Made by a program: the position numbers. A stretch of 57,197 bases of DNA, from NCBI RefSeq assembly GCF_003334385.1, contig NZ_QOWN01000030.1, one strand, 5' to 3'. Numbering within the stretch: the first letter of the stretch is position 1; each line of letters opens with the position of its first letter. Shown one piece after another: positions 9,001 through 18,000 of the stretch. Source of the DNA: Escherichia coli (GTDB lineage Bacteria > Pseudomonadota > Gammaproteobacteria > Enterobacterales > Enterobacteriaceae).

Positions 9001-12000
9001 AAAAAAAAAGAATAAACATGATAAACGATCTGAAGAGTATATTGTTAAAACCTTCAGAAGAAGTTGATGTTTTTATCAAAATTTTTGAAAGTTGGGTAAC
9101 AAAATTACCATCAATATCAGGTCCTGTAAATCTCCATATACCTACCAGTTTCAAAGATAAGTCTCTTGAAGTAGAGTCATATTTTGTCGACAAATCAATA
9201 TGGAATGTCCATATTACATTTCATGATGATAAGCGTTTTGTGTTTTTTACCGATCAATTTATTGCTGAATTTAGTCCGCAGGAATTTGTGGATAATTGTG
9301 AGCAATATTTAATTAATAATCATTGTTTCTCCCCTGACAAGGTTAACGAAATCTGCGAACAAGCCAGACATTATTTAGTTGAAAAAATGTTTGAAACACA
9401 TTCTTTGGATATGAATAATTCTGTTTTGGCAAGCCCTGAGGACTTATAGCTCCCTGGCTCAAGTTTAATGATTTGAATATAATCTAATTGTAATATTTTA
9501 ATCATCTCATGATTTTTTAATGCCTGTGGTATTTTTTTACGCAAAAATTTTATTTTTAATTATACTTCATTATTATTTCATCAATGTATTCTTTGGATTT
9601 TGCTTATAATAATAATGGAAGGGATGATTATAAATGAATGCGTTAAAGCATTTACACTCAGGATGAATATATGGGAAAAATTAAAATTGTAGTTTCAGAT
9701 CAGCAGCCGTTTATGATTGATGGGATAATTGGATTTCTCGGACATTATCCTGATTTATATGAGGTTGTTGGGGGCTATAAAGATCTGAAGAAAGCTATAG
9801 CGGAGTGTAACAAATCTACAGCCTAAATATTTATTTTAGGAGAATTTGCAGGTGGAATGATGGGGGCCGAACTCGTAAAATGGGTTAAATCGCATAAGAT
9901 AGATGCTCATATTATTACATTTGTAGCAAAGATGCCGTATATTGATTCAATAAAATTGCTTGAAGCAGGTGCGAAAGGATGCGTATGGAAAACCAGTCAC
10001 CCGGCGAAACTAAATCGTGCTATTGATTCGATTAGTAATGGTTACACTTATTTTGATAGTGTACATATGGATTGTGAAAAAATATCTTCCAGGTATTCCT
10101 CTGATAATCAACTTACAAATCGTGAGTCAGAAATATTACAACTCATAGCTGATGGTAAAACAAACAAAGAAATCGCTAATTTCTTGCAGTTAAGCAGGAA
10201 AACAGTCGAAACTCATAGACTCAATATCATGAAGAAATTAGATGTTCACAGTGGTATCGAGTTGATCAAAACAGCTTTACGTATGGGTGTTTGCACTATA
10301 TAAAAAAAAGAGGCTTTAGGCTCATTTTGCTGAAGCCTTACGATTGTCTAGTTCATTAAGCCTGGTATATACAATATATATTTTGGGGCATATTGCTGTC
10401 TCTTTTTTTGGTTATCCATTGCAAAACCCGCATTATAAGTCCCCAGGCATTGCCACGTTACTCCACAACGTGAAAAATGGTTATATAAAATCTCGGTTCC
10501 TATTTTAATGTTCAGACAAGGGTTATCTAACAAATCTCGTTCATCTTTTATTATTCCACGTTTTTTTAACAGGGGAATATGCATCTGGTTTATCTGCATT
10601 AACCAATAATCTAAACTCTTTATATTGTTATTCTTATCTCTGTTCTTGCCTATGCTATCCTTTTTTAGATTGCTTTCAACAAGAGCGATAGCTTTAATTA
10701 AATTTGGTTCGATTCTGAACATTGTTCCTGCTTCATTAGAGCAAGAGTTGCTGGCGAAAGACATTTTTGTAATAAATATACAAAACGTGAAGATGGTTAA
10801 GAATTTAACTTTTGGTGAGCGCATATTTTTTCATGTGTGAGGATTGAATGAAAGGAACGAGATACTATTATAAAAGTATCTCGTTATGATTTATTTGGTC
10901 AATCGTCTACCACTCAATTTTATAGTAAGGTGAGATAGGATTATCTTCTGAATACATATCATTTTGAAAAGGCGCCATCCATGTTGAAACTATAAATGCT
11001 TGTATTTGATCTGTATCAGTAGCACTGGTGTTGATGTGTTTATCTAATGATACGACTTCATCACCCGTTGCATTCGCTATATTTGAACTTTGAGATAAAT
11101 TATTGATACCGATTGGATTAGTCATAAAGCTCCCTTTTTTAATTGTCCAGGCCAATGGTCTTTACATCATACTTTTAACTCTAGAGCATTTTAAATATCT
11201 TGCAATAAGGTGAATATCTTAGATATTTTTATCTCTGTTGTTTAAATAACAAGTTGCATACATCTAAATAATAAAATTGCGTCAATAAAAATTTATCGCA
11301 TACAAATTCTCGTCAACTGCTTTAATTTCAAAATGTTGTCAATTATAACTCGATGGCTTTCACTCTCAGTTTCTTTATAGTAGAGTTTAATGTTGTTTTT
11401 GAGCGGGTTAGGCACATACATATCTACACATTCTTTTATCACAACTGCTTTTCGTCTTCTGGGTTCGAGTTGTAGTGATTTGTCTATACAAATCCTTGCC
11501 TCTTCAATTTTTTCATTATGAAAGTGGACTAGTGCCCTATAGTAGTAGAGAGAGGCTATATCAGTTGAGTGTATCTTAGCCTGTTCAAATAAGATATGAG
11601 ATACTTTTGCTTGTCCAGACAGACCAGTTATCAGTCCCATAATAGCTAAAATTTTTCCATCGACAGTGGTTATGTCTGATACATAATCTAAAAGCTCTAA
11701 TGCTTTTTGAGCAGCAAGTTCAAGTTCACTTTTTCCATGAAGTGCCAAAGACATATGGCATTCCGCTAGAAGGCAATAACATTCTGTTTTTAGCGTCTGT
11801 ATATCACTTTTATTTTGTAATCTATCAAATATAGTCATGGCCCTGTAAATGCTTTCAGGGGTGAAGTCGTAAAGTTCTTTCTTTCCGGCTAACATTTCAT
11901 CTGATAAATAATGATTCTTATATCCTTGGTCCTGCTTAGCTAATCTTACAGATCGTTCTGGTTTATGTACCGTTTGAAGGATATTATCTATAATAAATTG

Positions 12001-15000: not shown

Positions 15001-18000
15001 TCTGTTACCAATGCTCAAAATAAAAGCATGCTTACCTTGCTTTAGTATATTATAGCTTACACTTTTTTCTGGAAAGACATAAAAATCAGGAATAAGTTGT
15101 GCAAGTCTATCATCATCAACTTGATCCATAATCTCAAACTTATTAACTTTCTTTGATGTTAAATGGGCTGTGTCATAGTTTTCAATCCATGTGTATTCAA
15201 TATTTCGCCGTATTGATTTACTTTCTCTGTTACCTTGTTGCCAGGTTCCACTCAACGCAACAGTTCCTGTTTTATTTTTTTTGTTATACATAAAGTCGAT
15301 GGTAAGATTTGCTCGTCCCTGGTCATTAAAAATTACCCAATTTGCAGTGCATGTTTCGTTATATATCATTTTTTCTGCAGTGTAAGAATAGACAGTGAAG
15401 AGAATAAACCCACTGATAAAAACTAAAATAAATAATAAGTTTTTTTTATAATCAATCACGATTAACCTCACGGTAAGACAGGGTTAAACAGTTTGCCACT
15501 TCATGTTGGTTATAGTTTTTATTGCATGCCATAACAATCATCCCCGGTGAGGATTTTGCAAGAGGGAAGTATAACCACGGATGTTTTTTACAGTTAATCC
15601 CCGAATCCAGTATCCGTGTTTTATATTTATCGAACTCTTTCAACCCATCAATTGTATCTTCTGTTACATTAAAATGGCAGCCATTAATTTCCGCAACAGT
15701 CTTGTAATCCTTGAAAAATGGCTTCGGTTGATTATTATTCCATAGCCAATATGCAGAATATGCGCCTATGACAAATGCGCTCAACATAATTAGATGACTT
15801 TTTATATGTTTGAGGATTTTGTTATTGAAATTCTTTGCGCCACCAATGCTCTCTTTGTATCCCGCATTAACTTTTATGGCAGGTGGGGCATTGTGTGTAT
15901 GTGCGTCTGTTGACGAGTTTATTACATGATTTTGTATGTTAATGTCATTATGGATCTTGAATCCTCTTCTCGGCACGGTTGCAATTAGCGAGTGGGTAGT
16001 ATCACCAACAGCGCGAAATCCGCGTCTGATAATGGATATGTTCTGATATAACGTGTTAGTAGGCACACGCATACCTTCTTCTTCCCAGACTCTGGTGAAA
16101 AAATCTTGTTGTGCAACCACATCAGGAAAAGCTTCAAGTAGAAGTGATAAACATCGACTGGCTGGCGTTGTCAGAACGACGTTAAGATCGGCGTTATGTA
16201 CCGATATTAATTTTCGGTGCTCAGGCCAGAACTCGATATTATCGTTAATAATCCAGTACATACGTCAATAAACACTAAATCAATCGAAATGGAGATCACA
16301 TAGTTTGCTAAGTATATTGGTATTTACGGCATAAATATATATTAATTTTATATTTATCATGATGATTGAAATGAGGCTTTAATGTTGCAACGTAAAACTT
16401 TACGTAAATTAACATGGTTAACATTTATGCCACTATTGTTTGTAAATTCATATTTCGTAATGCTTCTGAATTTTTCGTGTGATGGTTTTAAATACTATGG
16501 TGTTTACTCTTGAGGGGACGGCCTATTTATAAAATACGGACATTTCAATAAATGCCCGTATAAACAGAGTATGATTCTGGCTGGTCGTTGAGTATCAATG
16601 TTGGACCGAATGTGAACGAATAAATAATTCGTTTATTTTACCACCCATTCTCTTTTCGATTCGTTGCTTGTACGCGTAGATGCTACGGATATCCATATCC
16701 AGAACTTCAGCAATCTGATATGGATTATAACCAGAAACCATATACCCCATTATGGTGAATTCCATCTGAGTTAATGTGTTACCTCTGGTAAATGATAAAT
16801 AACGACCAATAAATAGTTGTCTGATCTTTTCATTGGCAACATCAAGACCATCATCATTATATATGACAGCAGATATTGCTGAGTTGTGTTTTCGCCAGTA
16901 ATTAGCTAACGATTGCATATTGCGGTCGCTGACTAAAACAATCCCCATGTCAGTACTTGCAAGATAGTCAATCCAGTCTTTTTCAAGGAATAGACGTAAA
17001 AAACTTACTGAAAAATCGACAAAAATATATCCGCTTAATCTCGCATTGTGGTTTTTTGTTAAGATACCTTCTACCACACCACGATTAAAATATGAACTTT
17101 CTTCGGGCCACATACAAAAACACGAGTTTGCGCAATACTGCAAACGCGGTGACTCTTCTGGCATTATTTGGCAATGCATTGAGCAACTATTGCATGTAAG
17201 ACTTTTATAACGACTACAAAGCCCCATGTTAAGAACCTCCCTATCCGTATATAATTGCATAATTTCATTGGTTATTGATGATGTCAATACACCATGATTT
17301 TGTAATTTTGCCGGGAAAAATTGCGATTAATCTGTATTTGCTATAATTCTGAGTAAGGCATTTAAAAATGCATTTCTCGTTATCAAATATGATTATGTTT
17401 CACTGATTTAATCTTGCATGGTTGAGAGCGGTCCAGATAACTATCTCATGGTATAAGAATATCTATATCGCAAATTGTTTTTGAATGACCAGAAGATATC
17501 TTGCGAATCTAAGTTATGCATCTTAAATAGTCTTATTTAAGATGTTCAGATCTCTTTGTGTGTTTAACTAACTGATAATACTAGGATATGACGAGAGAAG
17601 TGATAGGGTGGAATAATAACAAATGAATATTATGAAAAATGGAATGGTTCAAAATTGTAGCAATTTTGAACCATCCACAACTGATATTAGCTAAAGAACA
17701 TTACCGATACGCACAGGATACCCACGATCAGCGTAATCAGATTTCCGATGGAACGCCAGGGTTTAAGCGCCGGGATGAGATATGTTGACAGCGTAGGCAT
17801 GATGAAAAGTATCATGGCAATGAGCGGGCCGCTGATCGCGTAAATCATCGAAATCGCGTTCGGGTTAATGCAACAAACAATGAAGGTAATCAGCGATACC
17901 AACATAATTGATAGTGCGCGGTTAAATGCACGACTTTTCTTTACACCAACCTGCTGTAGTGTTGTTTTGACGACCTCTGTGGCACCTTCAATAACGCCAA

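Follow-up and report, generated by a model that had tools for sequence, protein, structure and literature searches.

Survival of regulators in a degenerate ETT2 island of Escherichia coli is probably gene-specific

ETT2, the second type III secretion island of Escherichia coli, resembles pathogenicity island 1 (SPI-1) of Salmonella. It is a textbook virulence island caught in mid-decay, and the question it raises is which of its parts outlive the machine. The naming of the deleted isoform found here reportedly goes back to a study of 2004, cited in PMC3977695 and PMC11068852. Here we describe the ETT2 island at positions 1-18,500 of a 57,197-nucleotide stretch of E. coli DNA (contig NZ_QOWN01000030.1 of assembly GCF_003334385.1; hereafter the window, meaning the whole stretch) and follow its regulator and structural genes through other E. 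coli genomes.

The attrition of ETT2, its deletion isoforms and the insertion of an insertion sequence (IS) in ygeH have been published; a deletion of about 8.7 kb is the common isoform reported for septicaemic and avian strains (PMC11068852). Some ETT2 regulators act on other loci. EtrA and EivF repress the enterocyte effacement locus (LEE), and EtrB activates it through ler (PMC11068852, PMC10877973); as these three proteins do for LEE in O157, orphan regulators of dead islands can rewire the regulation of the host cell. In avian pathogenic E. coli (APEC), YqeI and YgeK affect motility and adhesion, and YqeH affects espE3, an effect also described for YgeG (PMC11068852, PMC10877973, PMC8614350). 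H-NS silences ygeH and the island, and the 042 allele of YgeH activates the apparatus operons of the island and can replace HilA, whereas O157 YgeH, although intact, failed to complement hilA (PMC4210603). As the last case illustrates, an intact frame is weak evidence of function.

The ETT2 of the window is a degenerate member of the ETT2 family. The interval 11293-17227, which runs exactly from the stop codon of ygeH to the start codon of yqeH, lies in the right arm of the island, an arm kept even by K-12; the island itself is a recently inactivated form without the eiv genes. A reading of this interval from the DNA alone (the sequence-only reading) had noted that regulators are intact while structural genes decay, and had proposed that, secretion having been lost, the regulatory module is retained by selection, possibly for cross-talk with other loci. 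Our comparison shows that the six ETT2 regulators do not act as one module. In the recently inactivated island, survival of regulators is probably gene-specific, with yqeH and yqeI kept and the others decaying. A blanket rule that regulators outlast the machine lumps too much together: yqeH and yqeI seem to be protected, whereas etrA, etrB, eivF and, in part, ygeH do not.

We mapped each reference ETT2 gene onto the window and compared the frames with intact references. The frames of ygeH (458 aa), etrA (the regulator at 4930-5430), yqeH, yqeI and the chaperone gene ygeG proved full length, and the domain labels given to them in the sequence-only reading were right: YgeH is of the HilA family, EtrA and YqeH carry GerE, YqeI carries Trans_reg_C, and YgeG resembles SicA/LcrH. 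Its count of at least five broken apparatus genes was also borne out (epaQ, epaS, eprH, orgB and pbl), and eivG, eivE, eivA, eivC, eivI and most of eivJ are deleted in addition. Intactness of the regulators did not hold as a general statement. Four of the six are intact (ygeH, etrA, yqeI and yqeH), etrB bears a stop codon and eivF is deleted; conversely, seven apparatus-associated genes are intact (epaP, epaR, eprI, eprJ, eprK, orgA and the InvH-like gene). Counted within the window alone, four intact regulators and one broken versus six intact and six broken apparatus genes gave no significant difference (Fisher p=0.34). At the apparatus density of 5-6 hits in 8.1 kb, the Poisson chance that the five uninterrupted genes (3.8 kb) all escape is 0.06-0.09. 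The asymmetry in the window alone is not distinguishable from chance.

We base the comparison across strains on 30 genes classified in 23 ETT2 loci, the window included, with frameshifts, nonsense codons and IS insertions taken as disabling events. Independent events numbered 38 in 14.7 kb of apparatus genes and five in 4.7 kb of regulator genes (2.6 versus 1.1 per kb); the binomial probability of the regulator deficit is 0.033 by length and 0.0019 by length times the number of genomes carrying the gene. This class-level deficit stems from yqeH and yqeI. No disabling event was found in yqeH in 23 loci or in yqeI in 22 loci; together the two genes had none versus 6.6 expected at the apparatus rate (P=0.0014), or versus 3.7 expected by length alone (P=0.024). 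For ygeH the deficit was borderline (two events, both IS2 insertions at different sites, versus 5.9 expected; P=0.07). etrA and etrB together had three events versus 4.3 expected, with no significant deficit, and decay at the apparatus rate. By the sequence-only reading, regulators should be disabled less often than structural genes; in these loci this holds for yqeH and yqeI, fails for etrA and etrB and is marginal for ygeH.

Prevalence of disruption was scored for each of four genes in a set of 60 genomes, picked at a regular interval from the full series of matches, counting net length changes that are not a multiple of three, splits by IS elements and truncations; the figures are prevalences rather than independent events, and nonsense codons escape this scoring. 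eprH was disrupted in 23 of the 60 (38%), mainly by small frameshifts (21 genomes). Disruption was found in 10 genomes (17%) for ygeH, by IS903B, IS2, two small frameshifts (one +1 and one -1) and truncations; in seven (12%) for yqeH, by IS1 and a truncation of the REL606 type, with no small frameshift; and in four (7%) for yqeI, by IS1A, one small frameshift (-1), a split and a remnant. Each of the three regulator genes was broken less often than eprH (Fisher p=0.013, 0.0013 and 5e-5 for ygeH, yqeH and yqeI, respectively). Damage to regulators in these samples came mostly from IS elements and deletion edges, and none of the three was exempt.

Retention of whole blocks was compared in 5,426 complete genomes, with a block taken as kept when at least 80% of it was present. 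The eiv block is kept in 972 genomes (18%), the epa/epr/org block in 2,993 (55%) and ygeH-yqeH in 3,526 (65%), so that retention is lowest on the side of glyU/ygeQ and climbs in the direction of yqeG. The arm that holds the regulators stands just ten points above the middle apparatus block, a gap that K-12 laboratory derivatives inflate, and ygeH is absent from 1,865 genomes. Every type of deletion seen in the fetched loci takes away at least one regulator. The types are the deletion of about 8.7 kb found in the window; the K-12 IS2 type; three different IS1 types, ending before or at the end of ygeH; a deletion from eivF to eivA; one from eprH to ygeG, which removes etrB and ygeH; one from eivI to yqeI, after which eivF and yqeH are the only regulators left; and the REL606/B2 type, which ends inside yqeH. 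The InvF-like regulator gene eivF is deleted in 15 of the 23 loci and reduced to a stub in one more, and ygeH is removed by deletion in loci L012 and L022.

Locus L012 (NZ_CP027362, strain 95-3192), like three O145 genomes, presents the reverse of the window pattern. It retains yqeH and eivF-eivC, although sctC, sctV and sctN are broken there, and has lost the whole span from eivI to yqeI, with ygeH, etrA and etrB among the genes deleted.

A comparison of the ratio of nonsynonymous to synonymous substitution rates (dN/dS), which the sequence-only reading had suggested as a check, did not separate regulators from structural genes. Between deep lineages (window, O157 and D-type), dN/dS was 0.10-0.16 for regulators and 0.08-0.20 for the apparatus; this comparison fails to separate the classes because most of the divergence predates the decay. 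In full-length lineages the ratio was 0.09 for both. Until recently the apparatus was under strong purifying selection: its dN/dS was 0.08-0.09 both within full-length lineages and from one such lineage to another. Among the regulators yqeH is an exception. The window type and the D-type lineages differ at seven to eight synonymous sites of this gene and at no nonsynonymous one, and the protein is identical.

These results trace the following course of decay. With the loss of one essential part, all of the about 20 apparatus genes were freed to decay jointly, and they are now gathering IS elements, and the deletions these mediate, as well as frameshifts and nonsense codons. Decay at the apparatus rate extends to EivF, EtrB and, in part of phylogroup B1, EtrA. 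YgeH is lost less often, yet IS insertions and deletions strike it frequently. Only in yqeH and yqeI, at the far right beside the core gene yqeG, are disabling mutations clearly in deficit. We infer that yqeH and yqeI have gained targets outside the island and are kept by selection for them, and that etrA, ygeH and ygeG are intact here mainly through small target size and the short time elapsed. A more specific proposal, which we make only tentatively, is that yqeH, and perhaps yqeI, has been co-opted as an ordinary chromosomal regulator with targets unrelated to secretion; purifying selection would keep it in commensal as well as laboratory strains, and the remainder of ETT2, the other four regulators among it, would decay.

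Several observations weigh against protection of yqeH and yqeI, and a number of them favour the main rival explanation, pure neutral decay, in which chance, a small target, recent inactivation, fewer homopolymers and a position far from the glyU/ygeQ side produce the pattern and no regulator is protected. Independent events in the 23 loci were judged without a phylogeny. Homopolymer runs of at least six bases occur at 1.5 per kb in regulators versus 3.3 per kb in apparatus genes, and scaling by run counts makes the absence of frameshifts in regulators borderline by our own arithmetic (0.873^22 ~ 0.05). yqeH and yqeI also lie at the greatest distance from the side on which most deletions begin; position alone could explain part of their retention, and the left-to-right gradient across the three blocks agrees with neutral decay. 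Disruption of the two genes among carriers means that protection is not absolute, and every regulator was found disrupted somewhere. Within the decayed A/B1 clade, the polymorphism ratio pN/pS was no lower for regulators than for the apparatus (0.39 versus 0.28; Fisher p=0.26) and was 0.41 for yqeH, from only eight changes; numbers in this clade are low, and epaP-epaR contains older recombinant segments whose extra synonymous differences skew the ratio. Neutral decay also accords with the chance-level asymmetry of the window and with substitution ratios that do not separate the classes. It accounts poorly for the lack of any event in yqeI and yqeH, by either expectation, and for small frameshifts in 21 of 60 copies of eprH versus two, one and none in ygeH, yqeI and yqeH. 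It also has to accommodate a YqeH protein without a single nonsynonymous difference, versus eight synonymous ones, between deep lineages. We regard neutral decay of all regulators as rather unlikely, and gene-specific survival as the probable explanation.

Retention of the whole module (ygeH, etrA, yqeH, yqeI and the chaperone gene ygeG) by selection for cross-talk after secretion loss seems improbable. The class-level deficit of events speaks for it, as do several independent IS-mediated deletions that stop short of ygeH (the K-12 type, L010, L011 and L017) and the published effects of EtrA, EivF, EtrB, YqeI, YqeH and YgeG outside ETT2 (PMC11068852, PMC10877973). However, that deficit is carried by yqeH and yqeI; etrA and etrB show none, ygeH is disrupted in 17% of its carriers and deleted outright in two loci, and dN/dS shows no class difference. 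Two of the six regulators are lost in the window itself, and these are two of the three whose cross-talk, with LEE, is best documented, EivF by deletion and EtrB by a nonsense codon; in a B1 subclade EtrA, too, is interrupted by a nonsense codon. The presumed partners of YgeG are missing, eivF and the translocator genes being gone, and O157 YgeH is intact yet non-functional (PMC4210603). Selective retention thus does not extend to the whole module, and covers at most a subset, yqeH and yqeI. We give still less credence to selection against the apparatus, by which a needle complex that is costly or exposes the cell to the host would make structural hits favourable and leave regulators as neutral bystanders. 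The many independent deletions and frameshifts in structural genes, the recurrence of the same eprH indel sites in unrelated lineages and the retention of the eiv block in only 18% of genomes would fit such a process. But the apparatus is under strong purifying selection in full-length lineages (dN/dS 0.09), hypermutability, presumably of homopolymer runs, is enough for the recurrent sites, and the cost of expression is expected to be low with H-NS silencing ygeH and the island (PMC4210603). Gene-specific survival, confined to yqeH and yqeI, remains the reading we prefer.

The layout that defines ETT2 is present in the window: beside yqeG lies a low-G+C island in which SPI-1-like epa/epr/org genes precede ygeK-ygeH-ygeG and yqeK-yqeH. 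G+C content is 31-39% over 1-18,000 (the island extends to about 18,500) versus about 52% beyond. The locus shares 99.9% identity with the ETT2 locus annotated in E. coli SCU-104 and is alike in gene order, and at least 80% of the window's 19 kb is present in 3,017 of the 5,426 complete genomes. The island carries the common eivF-eivJ deletion: compared with full-length loci, about 8.7 kb is missing, comprising a ghoT-like gene, eivF, eivG, eivE, eivA, eivC, eivI and most of eivJ. With the eiv block deleted and epaQ, epaS, eprH and orgB broken, the gene set for a needle complex is incomplete.

On the left, the island abuts the end of an IS421 element of the IS4 family (1-72), whose transposase gene lies just left of position 1 in the best-matching genome; positions 1-89 also match plasmid copies. 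The left ETT2 border is a C-terminal remnant of a glycoside hydrolase family 15 (GH15) gene, a homologue of ygeQ (73-672, plus strand), annotated by the Prokaryotic Genome Annotation Pipeline (PGAP) in locus L001 as 'incomplete, missing N-terminus'. In L005-L008, from other strains with the same 8.7 kb deletion, the GH15 gene is full length; here it is truncated beside the IS421 end. The last 120 nt of eivJ (SpaN-like; 685-804, plus strand) form the right edge of the deletion, as judged by comparison with full-length loci. eivJ is annotated as two pieces in all full-length ETT2 loci fetched (L002-L004, L009, L019 and L021), even in otherwise intact ones, and a variable polyalanine site is described in E. 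albertii eivJ (review, PMC11068852). On the right, the island is flanked by the core gene yqeG, an amino acid permease gene (17687-18916, minus strand) with matches in 5,423 of the 5,426 genomes.

Among the apparatus genes of the plus strand, epaO (sctQ; 764-1751) has a 1-bp insertion near 838 relative to O157, which leaves a 315-aa open reading frame (ORF) at 804-1751. The insertion is common to all 16 non-O157 loci carrying epaO, including loci called intact in the literature, and may be harmless, only moving the start codon. PGAP labels epaO/sctQ 'frameshifted' in every non-O157 genome (L002, L003, L019 and L021 too), with one extra base near codon 25; the label could be an artefact of annotation, or the O157 state could be the derived one. 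epaP (sctR; 1741-2406) and epaR (sctT; 2677-3444) are intact. Between them, epaQ (sctS; 2416-2675) is broken by a 1-bp deletion near 2562. This deletion was found in none of the 5,426 complete genomes, the best match being 99.2% over 121 nt, and may be either a private change of this strain or an error of sequencing. epaS (sctU; 3453-4564) is broken by a 1-bp deletion near 4156, common to 11 A/B1-type loci, that splits it into ORFs at 3453-4184 and 4181-4573.

eprH (sctD/PrgH; 5687-6867, plus strand) is broken by a 1-bp deletion near 6138, and its broken sequence occurs at 100% identity in other genomes. Two sites of eprH, at reference positions 347 and 452/453, have repeatedly acquired 1-bp indels in lineages that are not related (one pair being O157 and an A-type strain, the other the window and a B1 strain; loci L004, L015 and L018), and these sites look like hypermutable hot spots. 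The genes for the needle (eprI), the inner rod (eprJ) and eprK (sctJ), together at 6881-8203, and orgA (sctK; 8219-8800) are intact on the plus strand, and orgB (sctL; 8742-9449, plus strand) has a nonsense mutation at codon 29 (position 8826). On the minus strand, a small InvH-like lipoprotein gene ('invasion protein'; 4635-4928; InvH, E=1.4e-7) is intact, and pbl, a lytic transglycosylase gene (10322-10824), has a 1-bp deletion near 10388 that leaves 158 of 167 aa.

The regulator genes lie on the minus strand except etrB. etrA (4930-5430) encodes an intact LuxR/GerE-type regulator of 166 aa with GerE at residues 96-146 (E=4.7e-5); in five other loci it has a nonsense mutation at codon 144. 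etrB/ygeK (9671-10303, plus strand), of the NarL/LuxR type, has TAG at codon 52 (9824-9826), and a 148-aa ORF downstream of the stop (9857-10303) still encodes the helix-turn-helix. The same stop is found in all 13 A/B1-type loci with an alignable copy; it is the K-12-type pseudogene allele (PMC8614350). ygeH (11293-12669) encodes an intact HilA-family regulator of 458 aa that matches NCBIfam NF008870 over residues 1-458 (1084.7 bits, cut-off 800) and has, as in the HilA family, N-terminal PhoB- and CadC-type DNA-binding matches (residues 24-116). The YgeH of the window shows 15 residue differences from the O157 allele and 23 from the D-type allele; it shares 10 substitutions with the O157 allele relative to the D-type alleles (L003/L021), which we take to represent the functional 042 type.

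yqeI (15452-16261) encodes an intact ToxR/CadC-like regulator of 269 aa whose N-terminal winged helix-turn-helix matches Trans_reg_C at residues 28-102 (E=4e-9); its CadC match is weak (E=3e-4), and a moderately hydrophobic stretch at about residues 157-175 (Kyte-Doolittle 1.35) is indicated by hydropathy only. yqeH (16595-17227) encodes an intact LuxR/GerE-type, EcpR-like regulator of 210 aa (GerE at residues 151-195, E=6.6e-5; EcpR-like, E=1.7e-20). The C-terminal LuxR/GerE helix-turn-helix is present in both EtrA and YqeH. The TPR chaperone gene ygeG (13004-13495, minus strand; intact, 163 aa) matches the SicA profile (E=1.8e-34; 119 bits, cut-off 184) and the LcrH_SycD profile (73.8 bits, cut-off 104.8), so that the similarity to class II chaperones of type III secretion is clear but below equivalog level.

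Of the small genes, ygeI (10907-11125, minus strand), yqeK (14403-14828, plus strand; no family match) and yqeJ (14977-15459, minus strand) are intact; yqeJ, which shares 8 nt with the adjoining end of yqeI, encodes a hydrophobic segment at the N-terminus. ygeF (13720-14209, minus strand) has a 2-bp deletion near 13812 that leaves 148 of 163 aa. Two alleles frameshift it at this one spot: the window/K-12 group has the 2-bp deletion, and the B1 group lacks a single base. They represent either another hot spot or two independent hits. Between yqeK and yqeJ, at about 14864-14944, lies an 81-nt ORF (26 aa, WP_000655820/1) that PGAP annotates in every fetched locus keeping that interval.

Some candidate events were removed before counting. 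The epaO insertion (position 75 of the gene) was not taken as disabling, as it is present in loci called intact and leaves the 315-aa ORF. A flagged ATA start in epaR was an artefact of the alternative start codon of the reference, and a stop at 194 in orgA was the normal stop codon. A paired indel at 106/109 in orgB and multiple pseudo-indels at IS boundaries in L009 and L011 were discarded as artefacts, the latter of alignment. Locus L020 (SCU-482, NZ_CP053247) was left out of the event counts altogether: from epaO onward to the right, most of its ETT2 genes, regulators among them, show indels of 1-2 bp, a pattern typical of long-read assemblies left uncorrected and probably due to such errors. 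The eprH-J genes, etrA, ygeH, yqeI and the genes of the eiv block are free of them. Assemblies like this one, a RefSeq 'complete genome', would inflate pseudogene counts in large surveys.

The window matches the known deleted ETT2 isoform in gene order, low G+C content and the deletion itself. The chromosomal site is likewise between the ygeQ/GH15 gene and yqeG, and epaS, orgB, ygeK and pbl, annotated as pseudogenes in K-12 and B1, are pseudogenes here as well. It differs in details only, namely the apparently private 1-bp deletion in epaQ and the IS421 element truncating the GH15 gene on the left. Compared with the SPI-1 cascade of Salmonella, which comprises HilA, and InvF with SicA, YgeH is likewise of the HilA family and YgeG is SicA-like, whereas the InvF homologue EivF (PMC10877973) is absent from the window; SPI-1 in turn has no counterpart at these positions to the extra ETT2 regulators YqeH, YqeI, EtrA and EtrB. 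Regulators of a defective ETT2 acting on other loci, as the sequence-only reading envisaged, are already in the literature (PMC11068852, PMC10877973), but that cross-talk was studied in O157 or APEC strains with full-length alleles, and of the trio controlling LEE only EtrA remains in the window. The biology of decaying ETT2 and the cross-talk of its regulators are thus already known. Our comparison reveals no new kind of system; it narrows the targets worth experimental work to yqeH and yqeI.

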